A stretch of 64,000 bases of DNA, taken from NCBI RefSeq assembly GCF_030384885.1, contig NZ_CP128613.1. One strand, 5' to 3'. The notes below the pieces were generated by a model. It searched no databases. It saw only the letters and a program-made list of their open reading frames with translations, and had not been told where the DNA came from. Made by a program: the position numbers and the translations under genes. The stretch comes from Escherichia coli (lineage in GTDB: Bacteria > Pseudomonadota > Gammaproteobacteria > Enterobacterales > Enterobacteriaceae). Of this stretch, positions 4,901 through 55,140 are shown one piece after another (within the stretch, counting starts at the first letter, position 1; every line of letters begins with the position of its first letter).

Positions 4901-6245
4901 TCTGCACACGTTTCGAGGCATTGCCTTTGTTATCGTAGGCAACTGCTGAAATCGCATAATAATTGTCTTTGCCTGGACGGTAAGCCGGGAGCGTTACTTG
5001 CCACTGACTACCCTGACCGGTAATTTTGCCACCTTCAGCCAGTAATGACGGCGCTTCCCACTGCACATTTTTCAGTCCGTGAGTTGCTTTGCTGACCACA
5101 AGCCCCAGGGAAACCGTCTGACCGCCCTTGCCTTCAATACGCTCAGGCAGAGCAATACGGATCACTTCAGATTTGCGGTACTCAAGAACGATGTTGTTAT
5201 TACGCTCAACCAGGTCATAGCGGCTGCCTGCCAGCATTCGACGCTCGCGAATGCTGTCTGTATCGAGTTGTTTTTGCAGAGGTTCGCCAATTCGGTAGTT
5301 AACTTCCAGGCCAAAGCGAGTGTCATTCTCACCACTCTTGCCCTGCTTATGCCCGGCGCTCAGTGTCAGAAGAGGCACTGGTGTATAGGTTACCTCGGCA
5401 GAAATAGCATGCGGGTCTTTCTGGCGTTTATCTTTACCAAACAGCCCGACTTCATCGCCATAATACTGCTCATACATCAGGCTTGCGCCAAGCTGCGGCC
5501 AGGCAGGTAAATAGCCCTCAGCACGAATATCCCAGCCATTCGCCGGGCGTTCCTGATAATCCTCAACATCCGGTGATTTTTTCCAGCCAGAAGCCCGGAT
5601 ATAACCATTGGCGCTCAGTTTCAAATAATCACGCCAGTATTCCGCACCAACACCAATGCGGGTATGACTACGGGATAAATCATGATCGATAAAAGTATTC
5701 ACCCCCGCCATCCAGTCATTTCCTGAAAAATGACGCCAGCCAAAACCAATATTTGACTGAGTACGATCGTCGGTACGATGTATTGCCCCCTGAGTGAACA
5801 ACATATTTGTCGGCGTGTCATAAATCGGATAAAGCATTTCCAGCGAAGAGTCCTTCAGCGAGAAATTTTTATCGACATTCAGTTTGACGCGCGCAGTACC
5901 ATATTTCCCGAGCCACTCCTGTATTTCCTGGTTAGCTTTAGCTGTGGCCATTCCGGTAATAAAGTTACGTGTCGCATCGCTATCTGGCTGACTGCTTAAA
6001 AATGTCCCGGCATTTGCGGCAAACGATGCGACATTTTTCTCCACATTATTATCAGCAGCTACCGTGGTATTTTCCATGCTCAACCGTGGCTGAACCGCAT
6101 GCTGCGCGCGTGCTGCCATTACTGGGGTAAAGGTGACAGCGAGTGGGAAAAGAACCTGAACAGAGATATTTGCCCACGCCACGCAGCGGGCCAGAACTGA
6201 ATAACGAAATCGTGGTTGTTTATGACCTGTTTTATAACGTGACAT
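1992..6245 (-). CDS. fdeC: intimin/invasin-like adhesin with beta-barrel anchor and tandem Big domains
   Basis: 1417-aa ORF; N-terminal beta-domain then repeated Ig-like modules (TVTLTA.D..GNP.. repeats); matches recollection of FdeC/EaeH. Confidence 0.85.
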   Translation of the reverse strand: MSRYKTGHKQPRFRYSVLARCVAWANISVQVLFPLAVTFTPVMAARAQHAVQPRLSMENTTVAADNNVEKNVASFAANAGTFLSSQPDSDATRNFITGMATAKANQEIQEWLGKYGTARVKLNVDKNFSLKDSSLEMLYPIYDTPTNMLFTQGAIHRTDDRTQSNIGFGWRHFSGNDWMAGVNTFIDHDLSRSHTRIGVGAEYWRDYLKLSANGYIRASGWKKSPDVEDYQERPANGWDIRAEGYLPAWPQLGASLMYEQYYGDEVGLFGKDKRQKDPHAISAEVTYTPVPLLTLSAGHKQGKSGENDTRFGLEVNYRIGEPLQKQLDTDSIRERRMLAGSRYDLVERNNNIVLEYRKSEVIRIALPERIEGKGGQTVSLGLVVSKATHGLKNVQWEAPSLLAEGGKITGQGSQWQVTLPAYRPGKDNYYAISAVAYDNKGNASKRVQTEVVISGAGMSADRTALTLDGQSSIQMLANGNEQKPLVLSLRDAEGQPVTGMKDQIKTELTFKPAGNIVTRTLKATKSQAKPTLGEFTETEAGVYQSVFTTGTQSGEVTITVSVDDMSKTVTAELRATMMDVANSTLSANEPSGDVVADGQQAYTLTLTAVDSEGNPVTGEASRLRLVPQDTNGVTVGAISEIKPGVYSATVSSTRAGNVVVRAFSEQYQLGTLQQTLKFVAGPLDAAHSSITLNPDKPVVGGTVTAIWTAKDAYDNPVTSLTPEAPSLAGAAAVGSTASGWTNNGDGTWTAQITLGSTAGELEVMPKLNGQDAAANAAKVTVVADALSSGQSTVSVAADRVKAGESTTVTLVAKDAHGNAISGLSLSASLTGTASEGATISSWTEKGDGSYVATLTTGGKTGELRVMPLFNGQPAATEAAQLTVIAGEMSSANSTLVADNKTPTVKTTTELTFTVKDAYGNPVTGLKPDAPVFSGAASTGSERPSAGNWTEKGNGVYVSTLTLGSAAGQLSVMPRVNGQNAVAQPLVLNVAGDASRAVISDMAVKVNNQLANGQSANQVTLTVVDSYGNPLQGQEVTLTLPQGVTSKTGNTVTTNAAGKADIELIATVAGEHSITASVNNAQKTVTVKFNADASTGQANLQVDTAAQKVANGKDAFTLTATVEDKNGNPVPGTLVTFNLPRGVKPLTGDNVWVKANDEGKAELQVVSVTAGTYEITASAGNNQPSDAKSITFVADKTTATISSIEVIGNRAVADGKAKQTYKVTVTDANNNLLKDSEVTLTASPASLNLEPNGTATTNEQGQAIFTATTTVAAKYTLTAQVSQDNGQVSTKTAESSFVADDKNAVLAASSDVQSLVADGKSTAKLEVTLMSANNPVGGNMWVDIQTPEGVTEKDYQFLPSKNDHFVSGKITRTFSTSKPGVYTFTFNALTYGGYEMKPVTVTITAVDANTATGEEAMK

Positions 6246-13900: not shown

Positions 13901-14512
<612 letters not shown>

Positions 14513-14586
14513 ACTCCAGGCAAGTTAGTTTTAAAAAATGACTCACAGGGACATCATGTCCTCAATTTAACTCGGGAAGAAAAGCA

Positions 14587-15174
14587 ATGAAAAAAAAGGT
14601 TCTGGCAATAGCTCTGGTAACGGTGTTTACCGGCATGGGTGTGGCGCAGGCTGCTGACGTAACAGCTCAGGCTGTAGCGACATGGTCGGCAACAGCCAAA
14701 AAAGACACCACCAGTAAACTGGTGGTGACGCCACTCGGTAGCCTGGCGTTCCAGTATGCCGAAGGCATTAAAGGCTTTAACTCACAGAAAGGTCTATTTG
14801 ACGTGGCTATTGAGGGTGACTCAACGGCTACCGCCTTTAAACTGACCTCACGTCTTATCACCAACACCTTAACCCAGTTGGATACCTCAGGTTCCACACT
14901 GAATGTGGGCGTGGATTATAACGGCGCGGCAGTCGAAAAAACTGGCGATACCGTGATGATCGATACCGCCAACGGCGTACTGGGCGGCAACCTTAGCCCG
15001 CTGGCTAACGGTTACAATGCCAGCAATCGTACCACCGCACAGGATGGTTTCACCTTCTCCATCATCAGCGGTACCACCAATGGTACCACCGCAGTAACCG
15101 ATTACAGCACTCTACCGGAAGGCATCTGGAGCGGCGACGTTAGCGTACAGTTCGACGCGACCTGGACCAGTTAA
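14587..15174 (+). CDS. ecpA: E. coli common pilus major subunit
   Basis: 195-aa ORF with signal peptide [22 protein letters not shown]; operon context. Confidence 0.9.
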
Positions 15175-15231
15175 TCTCTCTGATGTACCAGCAGGGGTAG
15201 CCCCCCTGCTTTATTCCTGGACGGAATTGTT

Positions 15232-15900
15232 ATGAAAAAGCACCTTCTGCCTCTCGCTCTGCTGTTTGCCGGAATATCTCCGGCCCATGCGCTGGATGTC
15301 GGCGATATATCATCGTTTATGAACAGTGACAGCAGCACGCTGAGCAAAACAATCAAAAACAGTACCGACAGTGGTCGCCTCATCAATATCCGTCTCGAAC
15401 GGCTCTCTTCACCGCTTGACGACGGGCAGGTTATCGCAATGGACAAGCCGGATGAGTTGCTACTCACTCCCACCAGCTTGCTGCTACCCGCCCAAGCCAG
15501 CGAAGTGATCCGCTTCTTCTATAAGGGACCAGTAGATGAGAAAGAGCGCTATTACCGCATTGTCTGGTTCGATCAGGCCCTCAGTGATGCGCAGCGCGAT
15601 AATGCCAACCGCAGCGCTGTAGCCACTGCTTCCGCCCGCATCGGCACCATTCTGGTCGTCGCCCCCCGCCAGGCGAACTACCGCTTTCAGTACGCCAACG
15701 GCTCCCTGACAAATACAGGAAATGCGACGCTGCGGATCCTCGCCTACGGCCCCTGCCTGAAAGCCGCCAATGGTAAGGAGTGTAAAGAAAACTACTACCT
15801 GATGCCGGGCAAGTCGCGTCGTTTTACCCGCGTGGACACTGCGGATAACAAAGGACGGGTTGCACTTTGGCAGGGTGATAAGTTCATTCCCGTGAAATAG
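15232..15900 (+). CDS. ecpB: pilus chaperone
   Basis: 222-aa ORF, signal peptide, operon context. Confidence 0.85.
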
Positions 15901-15925
15901 ATAGCTGTGCAGATGGATAACGACA

Positions 15926-18451
15926 ATGCCTTTACGACGGTTCTCCCCAGGACTGAAAGCCCAGTTTGCCTTCGGCATGGTCTTTTTGTTCGTTCAGCCC
16001 GATGCCAGCGCTGCTGACATAAGCGCGCAGCAAATAGGTGGGGTGATTATTCCGCAGGCCTTCAGTCAGGCGCTTCAGGACGGCATGAGCGTCCCGCTCT
16101 ATATTCATCTTGCCGGTAGCCAGGGTCGCCAGGACGATCAGCGAATCGGCAGCGCTTTTATCTGGTTGGATGATGGACAGTTACGCATCCGGAAAATACA
16201 GCTGGAAGAGAGTGAAGATAACGCCAGTGTCAGCGAACAAACTCGACAGCAGCTGATGGCTCTGGCGAACACCCCGTTCAATGGGGCCCTTACCATCCCC
16301 CTGACTGACAACGCGCAGTTGGATCTCAGCTTGCGCCAACTGCTGCTGCAGCTGGTAGTCAAGCGCGAAGCACTGGGCACCGTACTACGCTCACGTAGCG
16401 AAGACATCGGGCAATCCAGTGTTAACACCCTCAGCAGTAACCTGAGCTATAACTTCGGCATCTATAACAACCAGTTGCGTAACGGCGGGAACAATACATC
16501 CAGCTATCTGTCGCTAAATAACGTGACAGCACTGCGCGAACATCATGTGGTGCTCGACGGCTCGCTGTATGGGATCGGTAGCGGTCAACAGGACAGTGAA
16601 TTATATAAAGCGATGTATGAACGCGATTTTGCTGGTCACCGATTTGCCGGTGGAATGCTCGACACCTGGAACTTGCAGTCCTTAGGGCCGATGACCGCCA
16701 TTTCAGCAGGGAAGATTTACGGCCTTTCCTGGGGAAACCAGGCCAGCTCCACCATCTTCGACAGCAGCCAGTCGGCCACGCCAGTGATCGCCTTTTTACC
16801 TGCAGCGGGCGAAGTACATCTCACCCGTGATGGGCGGTTACTGAGTGTTCAGAACTTCACCATGGGCAATCATGAAGTGGATACCCGAGGTCTACCGTAC
16901 GGTATTTACGATGTGGAAGTTGAGGTGATCGTTAACGGTCGCGTGATCAGCAAACGCACTCAACGGGTCAATAAGCTGTTTAGCCGGGGGCGCGGTGTCG
17001 GTGCGCCGCTGGCGTGGCAGATATGGGGCGGTAGCTTTCATATGGATCGCTGGTCGGAAAACGGGAAAAAGACGCGACCAGCTAAAGAGAGCTGGCTAGC
17101 AGGTGCCTCGAGCTCCGGCTCACTGAGTACGCTTAGCTGGGCGGCAACGGGATATGGATACGATAATCAGGCGGTGGGTGAAACCCGTCTGACGCTGCCG
17201 CTTGGGGGAGCGATCAACGTTAACCTGCAAAATATGCTGGCCAGTGACAGCTCATGGAGCAGCATCGGCAGCATCAGCGCCACTCTACCGGGAGGCTTTA
17301 GTTCGCTATGGGTTAATCAGGAAAAAACCCGCATTGGCAATCAATTGCGACGTAGCGATGCCGACAACCGTGCAATCGGCGGCACACTCAACCTGAACTC
17401 ACTGTGGTCGAAGCTGGGCACATTCAGCATCAGCTACAATGATGACCGCCGTTACAACAGCCATTATTACACGGCAGATTACTATCAAAATGTCTACAGC
17501 GGTACCTTTGGTTCGCTTGGCCTGCGAGCCGGTATTCAGCGCTATAACAACGGCGACAGCAGCGCCAATACAGGGAAATATATCGCTCTCGATCTCTCGC
17601 TACCTCTGGGCAACTGGTTTAGCGCAGGGATGACCCATCAAAACGGCTACACCATGGCAAACCTGTCAGCACGCAAACAGTTTGATGAAGGGACCATTCG
17701 CACTGTTGGTGCCAATCTGTCACGAGCCATCTCCGGCGATACCGGTGATGACAAAACCCTCAGCGGTGGGGCGTATGCACAGTTCGACGCTCGTTACGCC
17801 AGCGGAACGCTGAACGTCAATAGCGCGGCGGACGGCTACGTCAATACCAACTTAACTGCCAATGGCAGCGTTGGCTGGCAGGGTAAAAACATTGCTGCCA
17901 GCGGGCGGACTGATGGCAACGCCGGGGTGATATTCAATACCGGGCTGGAGGACGACGGTCAGCTCAGCGCCAAAATCAACGGACGGATTTTCCCGCTTAA
18001 CGGCAAGCGCAACTACCTCCCGCTCTCTCCGTATGGGAGATATGAGGTGGAGTTGCAGAACAGCAAAAACTCAATCGACAGCTACGATATCGTCAGCGGC
18101 CGCAAAAGCCATCTGACCCTCTATCCAGGCAATGTCGCCGTCATTGAGCCAGAGGTGAAGCAGATGGTTACCGTCTCCGGTCGTATCCGTGCAGAAGACG
18201 GCACACTGCTGGCTAACGCACGGATTAACAACCATATCGGCCGAACCCGAACCGATGAAAACGGCGAGTTTGTCATGGACGTGGATAAGAAATACCCCAC
18301 TATCGATTTTCGCTACAGTGGCAATAAAACCTGCGAAGTGGCACTGGAACTCGACCAGGCGCGCGGTGCCGTCTGGGTCGGTGATGTGGTCTGCAGCGGC
18401 CTCTCATCGTGGGCGGCGGTGACGCAGACAGGAGAAGAGAATGAGAGTTAA
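15926..18451 (+). CDS. ecpC: pilus usher (outer-membrane)
   Basis: 841-aa ORF, operon context. Confidence 0.85.
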
Positions 18452-20084
18452 CCTACTGATAGCGATGATAATCTTTGCGCTATTCTGGCCAGCAACCGCG
18501 CTCAGAGCTGCAGTGAGCAAAACAACCTGGGCGGATGCACCGGCACGCGAGTTTGTGTTTGTCGAAAACAACTCAGACGACAACTTTTTCGTCACTCCTG
18601 GCGGGGCGCTGGATCCGCGCCTGACCGGTGCCAACCGCTGGACCGGTTTAAAATACACTGGCTCAGGAACCATCTATCAACAAAGCCTCGGCTACATTGA
18701 TAACGGTTACAACACCGGCCTTTATACCAACTGGAAGTTTGATATGTGGCTGGAAAATTCGCCGGTTTCATCTCCTTTAACTGGCTTGCGCTGCATCAAC
18801 TGGTACACAGGGTGTAATATGACCACCAGTCTTATCCTGCCGCAAACCACCGACGCCAGTGGATTTTATGGCGCGACGGTGACCAGCGGCGGCTCGAAGT
18901 GGATGCACGGCATGTTGTCAGACGCGTTTTACCAGTATCTGCAACAAATGCCCGTTGGCAGCAGCTTTACGATGACCATCAATGCCTGCCAAACCTCAGT
19001 GAACTATGACGCCAGCAGCGGCGCGCGCTGTAAGGATCAGGCCTCCGGCAACTGGTATGTTCGCAACGTCACCCATACGAAAGCAGCAAATTTGCGGTTG
19101 ATAAATACCCATTCGCTGGCGGAGGTATTTATCAACAGCGACGGAGTACCGACTCTGGGCGAAGGGAACGCCGACTGCCGGACGCAAACCATCGGCAGCC
19201 GTTCAGGATTAAGTTGTAAGATGGTTAACTATACCCTGCAAACAAACGGGCTCAGCAACACCTCAATCCATATATTCCCGGCGATCGCCAACTCGTCGTT
19301 AGCCTCGGCCGTCGGGGCGTACGATATGCAGTTCAGTCTGAATGGCAGTTCATGGAAACCGGTGAGCAATACCGCCTATTACTACACCTTCAACGAGATG
19401 AAGAGCGCAGACTCGATCTATGTTTTCTTCTCGAGCAACTTCTTTAAGCAGATGGTGAACCTGGGGATCAGCGATATCAACACCAAAGATCTATTCAACT
19501 TTCGCTTTCAGAACACCACATCACCGGAGTCTGGCTGGTATGAATTTTCTACCTCCAACACGCTGATTATCAAACCCCGTGATTTCAGCATCAGTATTAT
19601 CTCCGATGAATATACTCAGACACCGTCGCGAGAGGGATATGTCGGCAGCGGCGAACCGGCACTCGATTTCGGCTATATCGTAACCACCAGCGGTAAAACA
19701 GCTGCCGACGAAGTGCTGATCAAGGTGACCGGACCCGCGCAGGTGATTGGCGGGCGCTCCTATTGTGTCTTCAGCTCCGATGACGGTAAGGCGAAAGTAC
19801 CGTTCCCGGCGACGCTTTCCTTTATTACCCGCAACGGAGCTACAAAAACCTACGATGCCGGGTGCGATGATAGCTGGCGGGATATGACCGATGCGCTGTG
19901 GCTAACCACACCGTGGACTGATATCTCTGGCGAAGTGGGGCAGATGGATAAGACCACAGTCAAATTTTCGATTCCAATGGATAACGCCATTTCGCTGCGT
20001 ACGGTAGATGATAACGGCTGGTTTGGCGAAGTCAGCGCTTCAGGAGAGATTCATGTTCAGGCGACGTGGCGTAACATTAACTAA
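18441..20084 (+). CDS. ecpD: pilus tip adhesin subunit
   Basis: 547-aa ORF overlapping ecpC end, operon context. Confidence 0.85.
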
Positions 20085-20763
20085 GACCCTGCTGACAGTG
20101 GTCTGTATGCTGGCGACACCTTTGACACAGGCGATTTCGGTCGGCAATCTGACTTTTTCACTGCCGTCCGAGACTGACTTTGTCAGCAAACGTGTAGTGA
20201 ATAACAACAAAAGCGCGCGGATATACCGTATTGCCATCAGTGCCATCGATAGTCCAGGCAGCAGTGAATTGCGCACTCGACCGGTGGATGGTGAACTGCT
20301 TTTCGCTCCCCGCCAGCTGGCGTTGCAGGCTGGTGAGAGTGAGTATTTTAAATTTTACTATCATGGTCCACAGGATAACCGCGAGCGCTACTACCGGGTC
20401 TCATTTCGCGAGGTCCCCACTCGCAACCAGACAAGACGCAGCCCAACCGGCGGCGAGGTCAGCACGGAGCCGGTGGTGGTGATGGATACCATTCTGGTAG
20501 TACGACCTCGTCAGGTTCAGTTTAAATGGTCCTTCGACCAGGTGACAGGAACGGTAAGTAACACCGGCAACACGTGGTTTAAGCTACTGATTAAACCAGG
20601 ATGTGATTCGACCGAAGAGGAAGGCGACGCCTGGTATCTACGTCCGGGAGACGTAGTTCATCAGCCTGAGTTACGTCAGCCGGGGAATCATTATCTGGTC
20701 TATAACGACAAATTCATTAAGATTAGCGATTCCTGTCCTGCTAAGCCCCCTTCGGCGGACTAA
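20053..20763 (+). CDS. ecpE: pilus chaperone-like protein
   Basis: Internal Met ([11 protein letters not shown]) gives 236 aa; overlaps ecpD 3' end. Confidence 0.8.
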
Positions 20764-21406: not shown

Positions 21407-21654
21407 ATATGCAATAATTAATTGCACTGCCCCGCCAGCTATAATCGCGGGGCTTCGTTTTTCAGGGATAACAAAACCCGAAACTTCTTCCATCTGCCAG
21501 CAACAATGCCTCTTCCTCTATAGTGTTCTCCGGATCTACAGCATCCTGAAGTAGCGCGATGTACTCACTGGCTATCTGCATCAGAAAGTTAAAAACAATG
21601 TTTTTAACCTATAAAAATGGCGCTGTATTTGCGCCATTTTTATCATTCAATGCA

Positions 21655-27816: not shown

Positions 27817-29550
27817 TTAAAGCGAGCGGATCCCGTAGGACTCAATGTGGTCAGACAGCGTGTCTTCTTTCTCGTACAGCATGGCTCTGCCAACCGCCAT
27901 AATCAGCGCAACTGCACCATCGATTTTGTTTTCCGCCTGCTCTTTGACGGGTTTCACCACATCATCGTTACCCGGAATGGTTTTGCCGACCACGTTGCCG
28001 ATACACCAGGTCATGATGGGATTGCCGTCATGATGAAAGCGCCCCGATTCAATTGCCGCTTCCAGCTCTTTCATCGGGTCGGACATGTTGGTGTAGTTCT
28101 GAATGATAGTGATGGGGTTCAGGTCTTCATCAGCAAGGTCATGTGACAACCCGGTCGCCCCGAAGGGGTCGATGGGTGACTCACTGACCGGGCTGATTTT
28201 GTTCGCCGCTTTGGCCTCCTCGAGGATGTAGCGATAATCCACCTCCGCACCATCGGTAACGGTCAGAACGCCCATTTCCACCCATTTCTGAAAGCGTTCG
28301 GCTGTCCGTCGATCTTCATTTTTCTCGACGCTGTACACCGTGTCATACGGTACCCAGAAACGCGGGGCCACACTGTAGTAATGCGTTTTACCGTCAATCT
28401 CGCGGGTATAAAGTCGCGCCATGCTGTTCATATCCAGCTTACGCGCCAGGTCAAAGGCCAGAATGCACGGCTGCCCCTCGAACTGCTCAAGAGTCAGTGA
28501 TTTATCCTCGCATCTCTGCCAGCTCACCAGGTTGAAATACGCCGAACGCGCCGACACCCAGATATTGAGGTGTTTTGTTTTAAAGACGTTTGCCAGACGG
28601 GCGTTATTTTTCGCACGTTGCTGCTGGCTTAACAAAAACTCGCGATAAACCGACACACCGATATTCGGGTTAGCTTTTTCAAGTACCTGCGGGTCGGTCC
28701 AGTCGTCGCCTTCGTCAACGGTATAGATGATCCCGAACAGTTCATCGTTGGGCACCGAGCCGTTGAGCATCTCGATGACTTCCCGCCGTTTGTCGTAGCA
28801 CGGCCCCTCAATGTTGTACCCGGCGGTGGTAATGGCCCACATCAGTGGCTGGCGTCGCGCCCCCATCCCGGTAAGCATCGTGGTGTAAAGCGCATCTGTG
28901 GCGTGCTCGTGATATTCATCCACCACCGCACAGTGGGGTGATGAACCATCACCGGGGTTACCGATCAGCGGTTCAAACCGCGCACCATCCTCCGGACGGT
29001 TCATGTTTGAGGCGTTAACCTCAATCCCGAACGCTTCCGTCAGCATGGGTGTGCGTTTACACATCAGTCGTGCCGGACGAAAGACTTCCCATGCCTGTTT
29101 CTCCGTCGTGGCACCGGAATACACTTCCGCGCCGAACTCGTTATCACAGGCAAAACAATACAGGGCGACACCGGCAGAGATTGCCGATTTGCCGTTCTTA
29201 CGGGGGATTTCGGTATACACCTCACGGAAGCGGCGCAGCCGGGAGCCTTTATTGACCCAGCCAAACGCGCAGCAGATCACAAAGAGCTGCCACGGCTCCA
29301 GCGTGATGGGCATCCTCTTAAATGCCCACTCACCCTTGGTGTGCGGCAACAGCTGAATAAATTTCGCGGCCCGTTCAGCCAGGTCCTTGTCGAAGCGGTA
29401 ACGAAACGACTTACTTTTTTCCTCCATCAGGTCATCAAGATGGCGCTGGCAGGCCTGAATCACAAACTGGCAGGCCACAATCTTTCCGTGCACGACATCA
29501 CGGGCATACTGATTGGCAGCATTTACGTTGGGGTAAGATTTCCGGCTCAT
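27817..29550 (-). CDS. phage terminase large subunit
   Basis: 577-aa ORF with ATPase Walker-like region and C-terminal nuclease region; overlaps small-subunit stop (ATGA). Confidence 0.9.
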
Positions 29551-30050
29551 GATTCGATGATTTTCAGAAACGGGTTAGTGGCTTTCTTCTGCCCCGCCAG
29601 GCCAATCAGACGCTGGCGGCTGCTGGGGTCGAGTCCGAGCATTGCCCCCGTACTGCTCATCTCGGACTCCTGTTCTTTTTTGGCGGTCAGCTCCGGATTT
29701 TTGACCATACCGCCCATTGCACCGGTGATGGTGTTGCCCTGTCTGGCAATATTTTTCACGGCACGTCGCCAGAACTCGTAGGCCACGCACCACCGCTCAA
29801 GCACCGCGAGGTCAGTCACGCACAGCAGGCCCTGACCGCAGAGTTCTTTAGTTGTCAGTTGCCACATGATCGTGGCGAGAGGGAGATCTTCTTCAGCGAA
29901 CCACTCCGGTGGCTCAACACCTTTGATGGGCGTAAAAACAGGTTCATCTTTATTCAGGGCTCGCTTGCCGGGGTTTCCGGCCAGCGCCTTGCGCGCCGTT
30001 GGCTTGGGGCGACGCCCGGAACGCCCCGCCGTTCCAGCCATATGCGGCAC
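29547..30050 (-). CDS. phage terminase small subunit (P27-like)
   Basis: 167-aa ORF, basic N-terminus [22 protein letters not shown], immediately upstream of large subunit. Confidence 0.8.
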
Positions 30051-30166
30051 TCCTGGTTAAATTTCATTTTTCGCGGGTATAAAAAAACGATGGGGCGGGC
30101 AGTCCGGAAGACGTCAGGTCACAGGGATTTGACCCGCCCCTCCCCTCTGGCAGTGGGAACTGGTTC

Positions 30167-30517
30167 TTACTTCAGCCGTTCACGGGCCGTCTTCGCCTTA
30201 TGACACGGCCAGCACAAACTCTGCAGATTACTGTCGACATCAGTGCCGCCATGCGATTTAGGGATGATGTGGTCAACGGTCTTCGCCTCACGCACCACAC
30301 CAGCACGCAGACATAACTGACACAGGCCTTTGTCACGCTTCAGGACACGCGCGCGGATACTGTCCCACTTCGAACCGTAGCCGCGCTGATGACGGGATTG
30401 TCCAGGTTTGTATTGCTTCCAGCCTTCGCTTTTGTGGCTTTCGCAGTAGCCTGAAGGGTCCGTGGTTGTAAAGCGGCAGCCGCGAACACGGCAGGCTTTT
30501 GGGGTTCGTGGGGGCAT
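30167..30517 (-). CDS. HNH endonuclease (phage packaging-associated)
   Basis: 116-aa ORF with CxxC...HIIPKSHGG..D..NLQSLCWPCH HNH motif. Confidence 0.85.
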   Translation of the reverse strand: MPPRTPKACRVRGCRFTTTDPSGYCESHKSEGWKQYKPGQSRHQRGYGSKWDSIRARVLKRDKGLCQLCLRAGVVREAKTVDHIIPKSHGGTDVDSNLQSLCWPCHKAKTARERLK

Positions 30518-31041
30518 ATGTACTCCAATGAAGAAACCAGCGAAATAGCTGCCTTCATTCGTAGTAAACCTTTTTCATCAACGCAGTAATGGATTCTTTG
30601 AAGAGTCGCGATCAATACAACTCACTAATGGAGAGACTTGTCTCACGCATGAGACAAATTTCCCGTTTGATTTAATGGACACTATAGAGGGACAGAATGC
30701 CTTCCTCACTCGAATCACATCAATTAAGGAGGTTCAACATGTTTCATTCCACAAGTCATCAGGCTGTAATTATGGCAGCATCAGTTTGTGCCAAAGACCT
30801 TTTCCGCTTCACTTTGAGCCTGATTCATTTCTACCTGACCGGCTCGCCTCTATCTTTTTAATCCCCGCTTTATCCAAATTGCATTGCCATAATGCCGACA
30901 ACACACTGACATTCAAATCCAGACTACCTCCAATAGTCTGACCGTACACCTATATAGTTTTAATTTTCATCAATCCATTTAACTATCGTTTAATTGTTGT
31001 CACATAGGATTCTGCCGTTTTTAACAATGCAGGATAATAAG

Positions 31042-31335
31042 ATGAAAAAAATGTTGTTTTCTGCCGCTCTGGCAATGCTTATTACAGGATGTGCTCAACA
31101 GACGTTTACTGTTGGAAACAAACCGACAGCAGTAACACCAAAAGAAACCATCACCCATCATTTCTTCGTTTCGGGAATTGGACAGGAGAAAACTGTTGAT
31201 GCAGCCAAAATTTGTGGCGGCGCAGAAAATGTTGTTAAAACAGAAACCCAGCAAACATTCGTAAATGGATTGCTCGGTTTTATTACTTTAGGCATTTATA
31301 CTCCGCTGGAAGCGCGTGTGTATTGCTCACAATAA
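31042..31335 (+). CDS. bor: Bor/Iss-family outer-membrane lipoprotein
   Basis: 97 aa from internal Met; lipobox LITGC; closely matches recollection of lambda Bor. Confidence 0.9.
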   Translation: MKKMLFSAALAMLITGCAQQTFTVGNKPTAVTPKETITHHFFVSGIGQEKTVDAAKICGGAENVVKTETQQTFVNGLLGFITLGIYTPLEARVYCSQ

Positions 31336-31366
31336 TTGCATGAGTTGCCCATCGATATGGGCAGCT

Positions 31367-31828
31367 CTATCTGCACTGCTCATTAATATACTTCTGGGTT
31401 CCTTCCAGTTGTTTTTGCATCGTGATCAGCCTCTCTCTGAGGGTGAAATAATCCCGTTCAGCGGTGTCTGCCAGTCGGGGGGAGGCTGCATTATCCACGC
31501 CGGAGGCGGTGGTGGCTTCACGCACTGACTGACAGACTGCTTTGATGTGCAACCGACGACGACCAGCGGCAACATCATCACGCAGAGCATCATTTTCAGC
31601 TTTCGCATCAGCTAACTCCTTCGTGTATTTTGCATCGAGCGCAGCAACATCACGCTGACGCATCTGCATGTCAGTAATTGCCACGTTCGCCAGCTTCAGT
31701 TCTCTGGCATTTTTGTCGCGCTGGGCTTTGTATGTAATGGCGTTATCACGGTAATGATTAACCGCCCATGACAGACAGACGATGATGCAGATAACCAGAG
31801 CGGAGATAATCGCGGTTAATCTGTTCAT
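31367..31828 (-). CDS. Rz: i-spanin Rz
   Basis: 153-aa ORF, N-terminal TM, coiled-coil; closely matches recollection of lambda Rz. Confidence 0.9.
31426..31608 (-). CDS. Rz1: o-spanin Rz1 (embedded in +1 frame of Rz)
   Basis: 60-aa ORF with lipobox VVGC and proline-rich PPPPP segment, fully inside Rz. Confidence 0.8.
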
Positions 31829-32301
31829 ACCTCAATCTCTCTGACCGTTCCGCCCGCTTCTTTGAATTTTGCAATCAGGCTGTCAGCCTTATGCTCGAAC
31901 TGACCATAACCAGCGCCCGGCAGTGAAGCCCAGATATTGCTGCAACGGTCGATAGCCTGACGAATATCACCGCGATCAATCATCGGTAAAGCGCCACGCT
32001 CTTTAATCTGCTGCAATGCCACTGCGTCCTGGCTTTTGGGGGAGAAGTCTTTCAGGCCAAGCTGCTTACGATAGGAATCCCACCAACGGGAAAGAAGCTG
32101 GTAGCGCCCGGCTGCTGTTGATTTGAGTTTTGGGTTTAGCGTGACAAGTTTGCGAGGGTGATCGGAGTAATCAGTAAATAGCTCTCCGCCTACAATGACG
32201 TCATAACCATGATTTCTGGTTTTCTGCCGTCCGTTATCCGTTCCTTCTGACCATGCCACCATATCGAGGAAAGCTTTACGCTGAGGATTAAGATTTTGCA
32301 T
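31825..32301 (-). CDS. R: endolysin, lambda R-type lytic transglycosylase
   Basis: 158-aa ORF closely matching recollection of lambda R (..[31 protein letters not shown]..). Confidence 0.9.
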
Positions 32302-32605
32302 TTTTCACCCCTGTCAGTCGTTCCCAGAAGTACGTCAGTGCAACCGAACCCATCGCACCACTAATCCCCGCTGTCGCGAGAATCATGTAAATACTGAATC
32401 CACTTTCGATGCTGATCAGGCCACCAATAACACCGGTGAATCCTGATACCACTATCTGAGCCAGAGCATTTATCCAACTCCACGTTGCTTTACTCTGCTT
32501 CACATCTATCAGGTAGCGGACTAGACCGCCCCAACCTGCGATGATCAGCAAAACGAGCCAGAACGCTCCGGCAAGGCTCTCTTTTTCGTGCATATGAATA
32601 GCCAA
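32288..32605 (-). CDS. putative holin
   Basis: 105-aa ORF with hydrophobic helices, overlapping start of endolysin; not lambda S-like. Confidence 0.55.
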   Translation of the reverse strand: MAIHMHEKESLAGAFWLVLLIIAGWGGLVRYLIDVKQSKATWSWINALAQIVVSGFTGVIGGLISIESGFSIYMILATAGISGAMGSVALTYFWERLTGVKNAKS

Positions 32606-32711
32606 TGTTTCGCCGCCGACAAAAGGCCGGGACGTTAAATGTCAGAAATCAGGCTCACGGGGTAATTTAACGACAAAGCACGGAGTTGATGCTCCCCGCA
32701 AGCCTGGAATA

Positions 32712-32734
32712 AAAAAGCCAGCATGTAGCTGGCA
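32712..32734 (-). terminator. intrinsic terminator of short late-promoter transcript (tR'-like)
   Basis: On minus strand GCCAGCTACATGCTGGC hairpin followed by TTTTTT, between Q and the holin. Confidence 0.5.
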
Positions 32735-32914
32735 ACAGAGGGTTAAGCAATATCAACTCAACAGCTGAAGACACCCTGGCTGGGGTACATTGGAAGGATA
32801 CTCACCGCCCAGAAACAGAAAAGCCCAAGGCTTTAAACCTCGAGCTTGAATTTGGATTACTGCCAGTGCGTACAACATTGGCAAAATATCAGATTTATAT
32901 GAAATATATGCTTT

Positions 32915-33604
32915 TTAATCCAGTTTTGCAATATTTTGCTGTGAAAATGTCGCCTTTTGTTTTGAACGTGTTCTCGTTAGAAGCAATAAAGCTTCGCTAT
33001 CAAGCTGTAGAAAAATGTGCTTCATTGCAACCCAGCGTTCAGTGAATGTCTCAGACCAGTTTTTTGATGTCACTCCCACCAGTGACGCCAGTTCCTGGTA
33101 TTCATAAGCCTCACGCCCTGCCAGTTCGCTCTTCACATCCTGTGCCGCCAGCCAGATCAACTTCTTCAGGCGTTCCAGTGTCTTACCTGCAATTTTTCTG
33201 GTACCCAACAGAGTCTTAAACTCGCTCCATGCCCACTGCGTTATGGCAACCTGATGCTCCCAGCGAATATTTTCACTGTAACTCCACAGCAACCATGCTT
33301 TCTGATGCTCATCGAGAGACAGAACAGCGCGGCGCCATGAAGAGGTTGAAAACTCGACCGGACTGATCAGGGCGACAGATGAACCTTTTGCGTACGACTG
33401 TTTACCGGAAATCGGCAGATTATCCAGCATAATAATCTTGCCAGTTACCTCATCCAGAATGCGTCGCTTCTTTCGTTTGTATGTACCAGTATCAAATTGT
33501 GCATGCTCCAGCCAGGCTTCAAGCTGGCCTTTCGTTGCTCCGCTCAAGTCAGCGGTAGCCACCATGAGTTGCTCGCGGACATATTGTAAATATTGGGTAT
33601 TCAT
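32915..33604 (-). CDS. late-gene antiterminator Q-like protein
   Basis: 229-aa ORF directly upstream of the lysis cassette and downstream of rusA; position-based, not lambda-Q-like in sequence. Confidence 0.55.
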   Translation of the reverse strand: MNTQYLQYVREQLMVATADLSGATKGQLEAWLEHAQFDTGTYKRKKRRILDEVTGKIIMLDNLPISGKQSYAKGSSVALISPVEFSTSSWRRAVLSLDEHQKAWLLWSYSENIRWEHQVAITQWAWSEFKTLLGTRKIAGKTLERLKKLIWLAAQDVKSELAGREAYEYQELASLVGVTSKNWSETFTERWVAMKHIFLQLDSEALLLLTRTRSKQKATFSQQNIAKLD

Positions 33605-33737
33605 GCGGCAGCTCCTTTCAGTGTTTTGGCGTAATTCCTCAGTATTCGGTAATCGGTCAAAACAGAACCGGGGAAACGATATAAGCGCAGATGCCCCCAG
33701 CGGTGGCGAAGAAGTTCTGCCATATAAAACTCAAACA

Positions 33738-34100
33738 TCATTCATTCCCCATTTCGGTGATGGTCAGTTCCAGCCTCCCACCTTTGGTAACAGGCATCTT
33801 CACAACACGGTAATCAACGACCTGAGCATCATCCAGCCAGAAACCTGCTTTAGTGAGTGCGTCAAAAGCGGCTTTTTGCAGATTATCCAGGTCACGGCGA
33901 CGGCGATCCGGCATGTGGCACTCAATGCGGATTTTCACAGGCATAGCCAGGCCGATATCCAGCATTGCGTTTTTAATGATTCGGGCGACGTTATCGCGGT
34001 ATGCCTGCCCCTCTGCGCTGACGTGCGTGCGCCCGCGATTATGGCGGTAATAGCGATTATTGCTCGGAGGCCAGGGTAATGTGATGCTGTAGGTATTCAC
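33738..34100 (-). CDS. rusA: Holliday junction resolvase RusA
   Basis: 120-aa ORF matching recollection of RusA (..[31 protein letters not shown]..). Confidence 0.85.
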
Positions 34101-34387
34101 GCCTTAATAACCCCCTCTTTCAGCCAGATAACCTGTGTTCTCGCCATACCTTCCAGCGCGCATTCTTTTGCATATGCAGCATCGACAAAATGTGTGCGGC
34201 GGTCGATTTCGTCGTGGCAGGCAGAACATGCAATGGTGGCAATCAGGTCTGGCGGTTTGGTACCGGTGCCGCACAATCCAGTCAGCCGGATATGTGCCAG
34301 TACAGACGTTTCAGGGTTGCCATTACATACGCCAGGGATTCTTACCTGGCATTCCCGACTACGCGCTGCTTTTCTCAAATCAGCCAT
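34097..34387 (-). CDS. phage protein, Cys-rich (DUF1364/YbcO-like)
   Basis: 96 aa from [10 protein letters not shown]; four Cys; nin-region position. Confidence 0.5.
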
Positions 34388-34550
34388 GATTCCTCCTTGC
34401 TGCCAGTCGCAACCATTTTTTATCAACCAGGCTGGCGGTATATCCGAGCAGTGTTGGTATTTCGGAAGGCTTCAGCTCCGGTTTACGCTTACGACGATTT
34501 GGTACTCTGTAGATGTGTCCGTTCATGACACGAATAAGCGGTGTAGCCAT
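34380..34550 (-). CDS. NinE-like small protein (56 aa)
   Basis: [56 protein letters not shown]; stop overlaps next start; not in ORF track. Confidence 0.45.
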   Translation of the reverse strand: MATPLIRVMNGHIYRVPNRRKRKPELKPSEIPTLLGYTASLVDKKWLRLAARRNHG

Positions 34551-34831
34551 TACGCCTCCTGTTTGTCGCGGAGCTGCTGGAACTCGCAGCTCTGCGGAAT
34601 AGTCAGGTGGCAGCCAATATTCATCGCCCAGGCTTCAACCTTACACAGGAAGACATACATCTCTCCGGTATCAAGATCGGAGGTATGGCGTAACGACTGG
34701 ATAGTGGTGATATCACCGGTTACGACATCAACCAGGTCTTTGGTTTCATAACCGAGATATGTGTGTTTGAGAGCATCTTTTACCCAAGCTGGAGTGGCGA
34801 ACGTTTTACAGGCAACACGCAAAGACCCCAC
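34550..34831 (-). CDS. phage nin-region protein, possibly 5'-truncated
   Basis: 93-aa ORF abutting the integrase upstream region. Confidence 0.35.
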   Translation of the reverse strand: MGSLRVACKTFATPAWVKDALKHTYLGYETKDLVDVVTGDITTIQSLRHTSDLDTGEMYVFLCKVEAWAMNIGCHLTIPQSCEFQQLRDKQEA

Positions 34832-34942
34832 TAAACCAAAATCTCCTTACCTCACAACGCGACAAGCCTGCATTGCGGCGCTTCAGTCTCCGCTGCATAC
34901 TATCAAGGTGAGCGCGGGTGATGGCATAACAGAGGAAAGAAA

Positions 34943-36106
34943 ATGTCACTCTTCCGCAGAAGTGAAATATGGTACGCCAGTTTCACATTGCCGAACGGTA
35001 AAAGATTTAAACAGTCTCTTGGAACAAAGGACAAAAGGCAGGCGACAGAGCTCCATGACAAGCTAAAGGCTGAAGCATGGCGGGTCAGCAAACTTGGTGA
35101 AATACCTGATATGACGTTTGAGGAAGCGTGTGTCAGGTGGCTCGAAGAGAAAGCACATAAGAAATCACTGGACGATGACAAAAGCCGGATCGGATTCTGG
35201 CTTCAACATTTCGCAGGGATGCAACTAAGAGACATCACTGAATCAAAAATTTATTCAGCGATGCAGAAAATGACAAACCGGCGTCATGAGGAAAACTGGA
35301 AACTCAGGGCAGAAGCATGCAGAAAAAAAGGGAAACCTGTTCCAGAATACACGCCAAAACCAGCGTCCGTTGCAACGAAGGCTACGCATCTTTCATTTAT
35401 AAAGGCCCTGCTAAGAGCCGCAGAGCGTGAATGGAAAATGCTGGATAAGGCACCAATTATTAAAGTGCCTCAACCGAAGAATAAACGTATCCGCTGGCTG
35501 GAGCCTCATGAAGCACAAAGGCTGATTGATGAATGTCCGGAGCCATTAAAGTCTGTTGTTGAATTTGCACTGGCAACAGGCTTAAGACGCTCGAACATCA
35601 TCAACCTTGAATGGCAACAAATAGACATGCAGCGCCGGGTGGCATGGATAAACCCGGAAGAGAGTAAATCAAACCGCGCAATTGGCGTTGCGCTGAATGA
35701 TACTGCATGTCGCGTATTGAAAAAACAAATCGGGAATCATCACCGTTGGGTATTTGTATACAAGGAAAGCTGTACCAAACCAGACGGAACGAAAGCGCCA
35801 ACGGTCAGGAAGATGCGGTATGACGCAAACACAGCCTGGAAAGCGGCGCTGAGACGAGCAGGTATTGATGATTTCAGATTTCACGACTTGAGACACACCT
35901 GGGCAAGTTGGCTGGTTCAAGCCGGAGTCCCGTTGTCAGTGTTACAGGAAATGGGAGGCTGGGAGTCTATCGAAATGGTTCGTCGATATGCTCACCTCGC
36001 ACCTAATCACCTTACCGAACATGCACGGCAAATAGACTCGATCCTGAACCCATCGGTCCCAAATTTGTCCCAGTCAAAAAATAAGGAAGGTACTAATGAT
36101 GTGTAA
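34943..36106 (+). CDS. int: tyrosine integrase (P4/DLP12 IntD-like)
   Basis: 387-aa ORF with HDLRHT...YAHL catalytic tail, ending 15 bp before the tRNA 3' end. Confidence 0.9.
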
Positions 36107-36166
36107 CTTATTGATTTAAATGGTGCCGATAATAGGAGTCGAACCTACGACCTTCGCATTACGAAT
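36105..36166. repeat. right 62-bp direct repeat (att copy overlapping tRNA-Thr 3' end)
   Basis: Identical to 22852-22913. Confidence 0.8.
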
Positions 36167-36196
36167 GCGCTGCTCTACCAACTGAGCTATATCGGC
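36121..36196 (-). tRNA. thrW: tRNA-Thr (anticodon CGU)
   Basis: Reverse complement reads GCCGATATAGCTCAGTTGGTAGAGCAGCGCATTCGTAATGCGAAGGTCGTAGGTTCGACTCCTATTATCGGCACCA; cloverleaf-compatible, CCA end. Confidence 0.9.
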
Positions 36197-44916: not shown

Positions 44917-45531
44917 TTACACAGCGATAAAAGCCATCCCTGTAAACGTCCGTCGCGGGTTGCCACGTTCAATCTGGTGATGGAACATTCGCCGCTGCGA
45001 TTTCAGCGCCGCGCTATTTTCCTGTCGCTGTTGTTCCAGCTTCCAGGCAATCAGTAATCGCGCCAGCCGTTTGTTAGCATGCTGGCTGCGCTCTGACTGA
45101 ACCTTCACGCTAATCCCGGATGCCAGATGCGTGGCGCGTACCGCCGAGTCGGTTTTATTGACATGTTGACCGCCCGGCCCCGACGAACGCAGCGTCTCAT
45201 AATGGATCGCATCGGATTGCTCCTGCTCATCTGAAGTAAAACGCCCAATGCCCAGAAACCAGTTTTTGCGCCCATGATGAGGGCGATACGGACTCGGACA
45301 AATCCACTGGATAGTGCCACACCAGCTTTCGCTTAGTGCCCATGCGTTGTCGCCATCAAGTGAAACCAGCGCCGAACGCAGTGTGTCAGAGTAGCGACCC
45401 GTTTCTGTTTCCAGCACCGTTACCGCGACGTCTTGTCGGGCAGCTTCTTTAATCAGCCTGTCCAGTGCCTTTTTCACTGCGAGACAACATTCTTCCGGCC
45501 CCTGAGCTGAGGAGAGTTGTAGCAAGATCAT
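44917..45531 (-). CDS. prfH: peptide chain release factor homologue PrfH
   Basis: 204 aa from MILLQ; contains [16 protein letters not shown] (GGQ motif); start overlaps rtcB stop (ATGA). Confidence 0.85.
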
Positions 45532-46667
45532 CCTTTTTTCCCTCCACTGTTTTTGAGCGTCAGCACCGGACGCAGTCGCGCGACAGGAATAATTAAACCG
45601 GCCTGCACCAGACATTGCACCACACTTTCAGCCGATTTATAGGCTTGTGGCGCTTCTTCAAAGATGAGTTGTTTATCGCGACAAATTACCCGACTGCCAA
45701 GTTCAGTACGTGAGAGTTGCGTCGCCGTGTGTTTCGCTGCCAGACGCCCTTTACACTCGGTGCGCCCCCATTTACGCCCTGCCCCATGCGCCAGCGAGTG
45801 GAGCGTTTTTTCGTTCGCAACAGGCTTAACCAGCCAGGAGTAATCACCGCGTGAACCGGGAATAATCACCAGACCGTTGTCATCCGGCGTAGCCCCTTTA
45901 CGGTGTAACCATCCTTGTTGATCGCCGATTCGACATGCGCTAACAAAGTTATGCGCCACATCCAGAACCGAATTTCCGTTGGCCTTAACTTGTTGCATTA
46001 TGCGCAAAGCGATCAGCTGGCGATTAATACGCGCAAACGCCAGCGCATCGTCATGTTCCGCAATATACCGTAGCGCGTCGTCACTGCCTTGAGGCAAACC
46101 ATGATGCGAAAACGAGGCAATATGCCGCTGTAAAATAGACTGCCCCAGCCCCCTCGAGCCGCTATGAACCAGCAGTTGCAGATGCTGCGCATCCAGACCT
46201 GCCAGTGCAAACAGTTCCGCGTCGATGATTTGATCAACTTTTTGCAGTTCTGCGAAGTGGTTTCCGCCACCGATAGAGCCAAGCGCGCAGCGCCACGGAT
46301 GCTGTGCAAACGCTGACGGCAGGTTTTCCTCCAGCCAGCTTTCTTCAGCAACGTCATCCAGCGCAGATAATCGCTTTTCAAACTTATCGGCGTTGTATTT
46401 ACGCGCGAGAATATCTGTTTGCCATAGCGCCATGCCGCAGCCGATATCATTGCCGACCAGTGCCGGGTAAAAACGGCCTACGGAGAAGAACGCTGCGCCA
46501 ATCGGATAGCCGCGTCCGGGGTGTAAATCTGGCATCCCTACTACGCGTTGCATGTCGGGTAAATTTGCCGAGGTGTGTAATTGTTGGATCGCTGAACTCT
46601 CGATCCACAGGTCATCAGATGCGATGGTAAATACCGCATCGGATAAGGGACGAATATATTTGCCCAT
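45528..46667 (-). CDS. rtcB: RtcB-family RNA ligase paired with PrfH (RtcB2-type)
   Basis: 379-aa ORF with RtcB-like His/Cys metal-site motifs (..GGNHFAE.., ..HSGSRG.., ..AHGAGR..); translationally coupled to prfH. Confidence 0.8.
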
Positions 46668-46770: not shown

Positions 46771-46984
46771 TTGTCGCCTTCCTGCAACTCGAATTATTTA
46801 GAGTATATAAATATAAAAATCAAGAAATGGCAGACGAATCCAGGGCAAGAAAAAAAGAATTAATCCTGGAAAGGTCTGCAAAGAGTCATTGATAAAGGAT
46901 TTTTCATGATTTACCTCCTTGCAGTTTGTGGAATAAGAAAACGCGCACATATTAGGCGGGCGTTATTTTCATTGCAAGCTGGAT

Positions 46985-47437
46985 TTAGTGTTGCGGTTTA
47001 TATCGCATATGAAAATTAGTAAACCACGCTCCCCGGCATTCAACGCGCTGCTGCTTAACTGTCTGAAAACCATAACGTTCAAAAAAGGGTTTTGCGGTTA
47101 TGCTGGCATCTACCGTAAGTTCGGATTCAGACTTAATCAAAGGTTTTAACAAAGCGCTGGCAACCCCGCAGCGGTTGTATTTCGGATCAACAAATAACAT
47201 ATCGATATAATGCTCAATGCAGGTAATAAAGCCGACCAGTTGTGTATTAATAACCGCAACCCGCACTTGTGATTTCGCGAGTTTCTCTTTCCATCGATGT
47301 TCATCAATCTGCGCCCAGGCGGCAATTTGTTGTGGTGAATAATGCTGACTAGCGGTCATCGTAACCGCTCTAATAAAAATAGCGCATAGTTGCTGAAAAT
47401 CGCCAGGCTGATAGTTCCTTATTTGTATATTATTCAT
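46985..47437 (-). CDS. yafP: GNAT-family acetyltransferase
   Basis: 150-aa ORF; start overlaps dinB stop. Confidence 0.85.
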
Positions 47438-48489
47438 AATCCCAGCACCAGTTGTCTTTCCATTTGCGGATCAAGCAACGTCACATGCAGCCCCACCAGT
47501 CGCACACCGCGCCCGCCACGGCGTTCATCCCAGGTTTTACGCGCAGTGGCGATCAAGTCAGCTTTATTCAGCCGCGGCCAGACGTGTTCCTGGGTGGTTT
47601 GCTGAAAATCGTCGAACTTTAATTTCACCCCCTGGCGGGCAATCAGTAAATCAGGTTTTACCTTTGCCAGACGACGTTCAAGTTCCGGGTACAACCGCTC
47701 GATGATCGCTTCACATTCAGACCAGTGATGAATATCTTCCGCCATCGTGCGTTCTACACCGACGGATTTTCGCAACCTTTCGCTGTTAACGTCGCGCTCG
47801 TCAATGCCCTGACTACGCTCCCACAAAATGCGGCCAAATTTGCCAAAGCGTTTAAGCAATGTCACCAGATCACACTTTTGTACATCGCCGCAGGTTCGTA
47901 GCCCCATCGCTTCCAGTTTTGCCGCCGAGACTTTGCCGACACCGGGAATTTTTGCCAGCGGTAAGGTTTGCAGAAATGCCGGAACTTCTGCTGGCGTAAT
48001 CACAAACTGACCGTTGGGTTTATTCATGTCTGAGGCGATTTTGGCGAGAAACTTGACCGGCGCAACGCCCGCAGACGCCGTCAGTTGCAGCTCGTTGAAG
48101 ATCGTCTGGCGGATTTCCTGAGCGATAAGGGTCGCAGAGCCGTGGCAATGGACACTATCGGTGACGTCGAGATAGGCTTCATCCAGTGACAGCGGCTCAA
48201 TACGCGATGTGTAGCGAGAGAAGATTTCGCGGATATGATTTGACGCTTCTTTGTAGGCGTCAAAGCGCCCTGGAAGCAAGGTGAGATGCGGACACAGTTT
48301 GAGCGCCATGCCGGTTGGCATTGCGCTACGCACGCCAAATTTACGCGCAGGATAATTGGCGGTGCTGATCACCCCCCGGCGTTCGCGGCTGCCGCCAATA
48401 GCAATAGGGATATCGCGCAGGGCGGGATTGTCGCGCATCTCCACCGCGGCGAAAAAGCAGTCCATATCCACATGAATGATTTTACGCAT
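47434..48489 (-). CDS. dinB: DNA polymerase IV (Y-family)
   Basis: 351-aa [29 protein letters not shown]... Confidence 0.95.
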
Positions 48490-48503
48490 TGCTCACCTCT
48501 CAA

Positions 48504-48523
48504 TACTGGTAAAGTATACAGTG
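48504..48523 (-). promoter_or_regulatory. LexA (SOS) box of dinB
   Basis: Minus strand reads CACTGTATACTTTACCAGTA (CTGT-N8-ACAG class) 15-35 bp upstream of dinB start. Confidence 0.7.
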
Positions 48524-48559
48524 ATTTCAGAGTTTGAGAAATGCGTAAAGATTCAGCAT

Positions 48560-49138
48560 TTAACGCGTTCGCTGCGAAAGCACCTGCTGCTTATCCAGCT
48601 TTTTCACCAACGGCTGCACCACTTTATCGCCATGCTGACCAAAATATTGATACAACGTATCGGACGCGCTTTTGGTGAGCACCATAATCTCAATGCGCCG
48701 ATTGCCCGCGCTTTGTGGATTTTTGGCATCCAGCAGCATCTGGTCCGCCATTGCGCTCACCCGCGCTTCGCCCTGTAACACCGGCTGCAACTGGCGGTCC
48801 ACCGCGCCGCCGGAAAGTGCGGTGCGTTTGTCCAGCATCTGCGTGAGCGCCGTACCCTGCGCCTGCCCGCTCTTACGCTGGCTATGACGATAATCGAGCA
48901 ATTGCTGCTCCAGTTGCCCGAGATAGTGATCCGCCTGCTGCAACGTGGTGAGCTGATCGTTAAGCTGCACGCTGTAACGCTGCGGGCGAGTGGTAATCAG
49001 CGGCGAGGCCGGATATTCACTCGCCGTCGCCGGGAGCTTTTGCCGCACCGCCTGAGTGGGCGCAACGGTTGACGACGATACCGCAGCGCTATGCGCGCCG
49101 CCGGTGGCGAGTGATGAAGATGTAAGTCCGACCTGCAT
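48560..49138 (-). pseudogene. remnant ORF carrying a MotB/OmpA-type C-terminal motif (LafU/MbhA-like), probably a deletion-fusion product
   Basis: 192-aa ORF ending ..NRRIEIMVLTKS.. (OmpA-like peptidoglycan-binding signature) but lacking MotB N-terminal TM region; sits where the flagellin/motor (laf) cluster would be. Confidence 0.45.

Positions 49139-51544: not shown

Positions 51545-51895
<351 letters not shown>

Positions 51896-54984: not shown

Positions 54985-55140
<156 letters not shown>

Follow-up and report, generated by a model that had tools for sequence, protein, structure and literature searches.

The dinB gene of Escherichia coli, which encodes DNA polymerase IV (Pol IV), is found in a four-gene and a two-gene operon. 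K-12 MC4100 is annotated with the order dinB, yafN, yafO, yafP, in which yafN encodes an antitoxin and yafO a ribosome-dependent mRNA interferase toxin. Gutierrez et al. (2011, Nucleic Acids Res 39:4192) found dinB and yafP alone in 40% of sequenced strains and 50% of ECOR strains, the two genes being invariably joined by a 4-nt ATGA overlap; the distribution of the two forms tracks phylogroups, and E. fergusonii carries the four-gene operon (PMC3105422). In CFT073, a two-gene strain, mitomycin C and stationary phase each induce a YafP-YFP fusion (PMC3105422). A 2023 survey reported that YafO is less prevalent in phylogroups C, B1 and G and in ST131 and ST73 (PMC10790755).

Here we describe the dinB locus in a 64-kb stretch of E. 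coli DNA (hereafter the window; Table 1). It is the CFT073-type two-gene form of the operon, most likely produced by deletion of yafNO. The two-gene operon is real, but it is an ordinary, common and already published polymorphism.

Structure of the dinB-yafP operon

Table 1. Features of the dinB locus and of other parts of the window, with coordinates in the numbering of the window.
Feature	Coordinates	Strand	Description	Basis
dinB	47434..48489	minus	DNA polymerase IV, 351 aa, intact	ORF list and Pfam
yafP	46985..47437	minus	GNAT-family N-acetyltransferase, 150 aa, intact	ORF list and Pfam
dinB-yafP overlap	47434..47437	minus	ATGA stop/start overlap, the yafNO-less junction, inside 7-bp ATTATGA	Sequence reading, K-12 alignment
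LexA (SOS) box of dinB	48505..48522	minus	ACTGTATACTTTACCAGT, core CTG-N10-CAG	Motif scan, K-12 comparison
Putative sigma-70-like promoter	48513..48540	minus	TTCTCA, 16-nt spacer, TATACT	Consensus scan, 9/12 positions
dinB Shine-Dalgarno sequence	48493..48501	minus	GAGAGGTGA	Predicted anti-SD duplex, -10.1 kcal/mol
Possible intrinsic terminator after yafP	46931..46964	minus	Imperfect GC-containing hairpin followed by UUUUCUUAUU	Tentative prediction
lafW(5')::lafU(3') fusion ORF	48560..49138		192 aa, upstream of dinB; junction at ~48757-48764	SMS-3-5 comparison
tRNA-Thr(CGT) (thrW)	36121-36196		Adjoins tyrosine integrase at 34943-36106	
Phage Q antiterminator	32915-33604			
Large terminase	27817-29550			

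Both reading frames of the operon are intact and bear signs of purifying selection. DinB matches the Pfam domains IMS (E = 4.9e-51), IMS_HHH and IMS_C of a Y-family polymerase and is 99.7% identical to K-12 DinB at the protein level, with residues D8, F13, Y79, D103 and E104 (D8, D103 and E104 being catalytic) and the C-terminal QLVLGL all retained. Divergence of the gene from its K-12 counterpart is almost wholly synonymous (dS 0.31, dN/dS 0.006). YafP matches Acetyltransf_10 (E = 2.4e-19), as a GNAT acetyltransferase, and shares 92% protein identity with K-12 YafP; its dN/dS of 0.13-0.20 indicates weaker constraint than in dinB.

Bases 47437-47434 read ATGA on the minus strand, in which the TG is common to the yafP ATG and the dinB TGA stop; an earlier note on this DNA had described the overlap of the dinB stop with the yafP start. 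The locus combines the sequence features of the CFT073-type two-gene operon: an intact dinB, an intact yafP directly downstream on the same strand, the ATGA overlap and a LexA box over the predicted promoter. The interval given in the earlier note (47434-48523) does span dinB and its LexA box; it omits yafP, and the operon reaches down to 46985.

Comparison with the K-12 operon

When the window was aligned to K-12, the junction appeared as one clean 759-base gap in the window, lying after the dinB stop and ahead of the yafP start. The 759 extra bases of K-12 encode yafN and yafO and are flanked by two copies of the 7-bp sequence ATTATGA, the first comprising the last dinB codon plus TGA and the second holding the yafP ATG. 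The window keeps a single copy, which gives rise to the ATGA overlap. In the remainder (dinB, yafP, the LexA box and the promoter region) the two operons are orthologous, whereas K-12 adds the antitoxin and toxin genes, and its yafP, rather than overlapping dinB, starts 9 nt past the yafO stop. The earlier note had stated that yafN and yafO lie between dinB and yafP in K-12, and had named a K-12 alignment with the same junction as the outcome that would contradict it; annotation and alignment bear the statement out, and the K-12 junction differs. Its description of a simpler two-gene SOS operon agrees with the absence of yafNO and the presence of an upstream LexA box.

Relocation of yafNO within the window was considered and rejected, since tblastn of the 64-kb window with K-12 YafN and YafO gave no homologue (best E = 1.2). 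The YafN-YafO type II toxin-antitoxin system is accordingly present neither at the locus nor elsewhere in the window.

Control region and predicted expression

The canonical LexA box that the earlier note placed upstream of dinB is found there: ACTGTATACTTTACCAGT lies 15 bp upstream of the dinB start, has a core identical to that of the K-12 dinB box, and has no second match in the window when up to three mismatches are allowed (chance expectation 0.03). Across the 111-bp dinB upstream region only two positions differ from K-12, one of them a base flanking the LexA box. The -10 hexamer of the predicted dinB promoter falls within the LexA box, in a region conserved with K-12. For translation initiation, the predicted anti-SD duplex of yafP amounts to -5.5 kcal/mol in the window and +0.4 kcal/mol in K-12, compared with -10.1 kcal/mol for dinB.

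At the distal end of the operon, folding of the minus-strand RNA over 46860-46990 gives a z-score of -2.5, and the hairpin and U-tract within it constitute a candidate terminator; a consensus terminator scan called no minus-strand terminator downstream of yafP. Between 44,000 and 51,600, a range that includes the operon, the Rfam scan returned no gathering-level match and the tRNA scan no tRNA. Further downstream of yafP (44917-46667) are an rtcB-family RNA ligase gene (379 aa) and prfH (release factor H), both intact in the window and truncated pseudogenes in K-12.

Because the control region is conserved, the window strain would be expected to transcribe dinB and yafP from the LexA-repressed promoter as one mRNA, yielding DinB and then the YafP acetyltransferase, as was shown for CFT073 (PMC3105422). 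SOS-induced synthesis of YafP, demonstrated in CFT073 (PMC3105422), is likewise expected here from the identity of the control sequences. Lacking a usable Shine-Dalgarno sequence, yafP probably relies on ribosomes that finish dinB at its UGA and then reinitiate at the overlapping AUG. Termination-reinitiation is the simplest mechanism for bacterial genes overlapping in AUGA. Gutierrez et al. (2011) describe the overlap as a requirement for "frameshifting" (PMC3105422). By either mechanism, YafP synthesis would be tied to that of DinB, and no YafP would be made unless dinB was translated. Such dependence fits the reported harm caused by YafP when Pol IV is absent (PMC3105422). The window strain would therefore be expected to induce Pol IV and YafP in the SOS response, minus the mRNA-interferase arm provided by YafO.

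Distribution of the two-gene form

Of 5,426 complete E. coli genomes, 5,416 have the dinB-yafP locus. An uninterrupted dinB-yafP junction, scored as an uninterrupted match to a 160-bp probe across the two-gene junction, was present in 2,569 genomes (47%), and K-12 yafN-yafO DNA in 2,847 (52%); the two classes add up to exactly the 5,416 genomes with the locus. Two-gene rows spanned exactly the query length in every case inspected, both under even sampling of the ranking (15/15) and at its top (24/24). All 11 two-gene loci read base by base carry the identical junction, GGGATTATGAATAA. The window shares with CFT073 and the two-gene half of ECOR its gene content, ATGA overlap, LexA-box promoter and this same junction (PMC3105422). 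For roughly half of natural isolates, K-12 is a poor model of the dinB locus.

What sets the window apart is its allele, which differs from most E. coli alleles at ~6% of nucleotides, with almost all of the dinB differences synonymous. Its dinB-yafP sequence is 99.9% identical to that of strain 2013C-4282; besides this strain, 24 records are at least 95% identical and the remaining 5,399 stand at ~94%, so that the clade at or above 95% identity comprises 25 of 5,424 records. The lineage that carries the window allele is rare and divergent within E. coli, and the examined members of this small clade are all two-gene. For the neighbouring pepD-crl segment, identity to nearly all E. coli is 95-99%. 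Two annotated frameshifts, each reflecting either real inactivation or a sequencing error, were noted among the compared strains: dinB of 2013C-4282 (L002:6535-7589) has one base fewer than in the window, and yafO of SMS-3-5 (L020:1903-2302) is similarly annotated.

Origin of the yafNO-less junction

Deletion of 759 bp between the two direct ATTATGA copies would leave the dinB and yafP frames complete and overlapping in ATGA, precisely as observed. We infer that the two-gene form most likely arose in this way, by loss of yafNO between the 7-bp repeats. The QLVLGL clamp-binding motif at the DinB C-terminus ends in a codon inside the ATTATGA repeat. A junction at ATTATGA, and there alone, would preserve both this clamp-binding C-terminus and the YafP start, which could explain why the junction is invariant.

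Microhomology deletions do occur in the yafNO cassette, as is evident from Escherichia sp. E1V33 (L004:3600-4030), whose operon reads dinB-yafN-yafP. At the same locus as in the window, the toxin gene has again been lost by a microhomology deletion; unlike the window, E1V33 keeps yafN, now an orphan, together with a 26-nt 5' remnant of yafO, and its junction lies at TTAT, not ATTATGA. A scan for YafP in species-representative genomes, performed by exact peptide-pattern match and not recovering E. fergusonii, E. albertii or E. marmotae, yielded five loci, four from Escherichia and one unrelated GNAT (Thalassoglobus). A non-coli species representative, Escherichia sp. MOD1-EC7003 (L003:2949-4453), has the two-gene ATGA form with an identical junction, and E. 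whittamii has the four-gene form.

The reverse history, in which the two-gene ATGA operon is the older and yafNO was inserted once, duplicating ATTATGA, and then spread among Escherichia by homologous recombination through the conserved flanks, is in our view improbable. It draws on the low divergence of the toxin gene. Across six four-gene loci (L001, L005, L006, L013, L016 and L017), mean dS was 0.233 for dinB, 0.119 for yafN, 0.048 for yafO and 0.128 for yafP, which places yafO synonymous diversity about five-fold below that of dinB and under half that of yafP. Between E. coli strain 1105 and E. whittamii, dS is 0.365 in dinB and 0.012 in yafO. The pattern holds in the identity ranges of larger samples: yafO was 98.2-100% identical to K-12 in all full-length rows evenly sampled from 2,850 matching records, and dinB of four-gene genomes fell to 95.1% in the sampled rows. 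Low yafO divergence of this kind would be compatible with a cassette of more recent origin than the flanking genes. The low dS values, however, are based on 133 codons and six sequences, and may equally mean that the dinB alleles are unusually old.

A 7-bp direct repeat bounding the cassette resembles a target duplication, but the cassette carries no transposase, integrase or terminal inverted repeats. A better repeat, the 8-bp TATTATGA, is also available in four-gene operons 39 bp past the dinB stop, but is unused in the sampled two-gene loci; this would be unexpected were deletions many and random, and every sampled two-gene junction is identical despite the better alternative. A plasmid donor for yafNO was rejected, as close YafO orthologues on plasmids occur only in F-prime or misfiled chromosomal records and the YafO-family toxins of Klebsiella plasmids are 32-36% identical; the lack of a close plasmid-borne copy counts against gain as well.

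The two-gene form in divergent lineages, namely the clade of the window and Escherichia sp. MOD1-EC7003, would suit an ancestral two-gene operon, whereas the four-gene form in E. fergusonii (PMC3105422), E. whittamii and about half of E. coli argues against it. Local neighbour-joining trees do not separate two-gene from four-gene alleles, and the topology for dinB differs from that for yafP, which marks the locus as recombinant and leaves the number of deletion events indeterminate. Were gain correct, a selfish toxin-antitoxin element would have invaded an older, translationally coupled dinB-yafP operon, and the divergent two-gene allele of the window would represent the older state. On balance, loss of yafNO is the better explanation, and repeated loss versus gain-and-spread is one point of modest evolutionary interest at this locus. 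An error of assembly or sequencing in the window as the cause of the yafNO gap, a reading raised only because the closest public genome, 2013C-4282, has the 1-base dinB frameshift and with no evidence in its favour, can be dismissed with near certainty, given the same junction in 2,569 complete genomes and two intact frames under apparent purifying selection.

Other features of the window

Upstream of dinB, the window has lost ~9.0 kb of the Flag-2 lateral flagellar cluster relative to SMS-3-5, at a TCACC microhomology. The deletion takes lafZ, the lafA flagellin gene, fliD, fliS, fliK, fliL, a sigma factor gene, motA and the 5' part of lafU, leaving the lafW::lafU fusion ORF, in which no Pfam match was found. 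The fusion junction was present in none of 5,426 complete E. coli genomes, and the ~9-kb deletion is apparently strain-specific; the otherwise near-identical strain 2013C-4282 has a K-12-type flhA'-lafU scar instead.

The segment from 27817 to 36196, with a large terminase, a Q antiterminator and an integrase next to the tRNA gene, has the appearance of a prophage, or of what is left of one, at the thrW site. Towards the left end of the window (1992-6245 and 13922-20763) are a gene for a 1,417-aa intimin/invasin-type inverse autotransporter and a CS1-type fimbrial operon (CooC/TcfC usher). Rfam matches at 21449-21649, 51612-51807 and 55055-55131 correspond to IS009 and three naRNA4 (REP-derived) elements, and two of the naRNA4 copies sit between Flag-2 flgK and the next gene.
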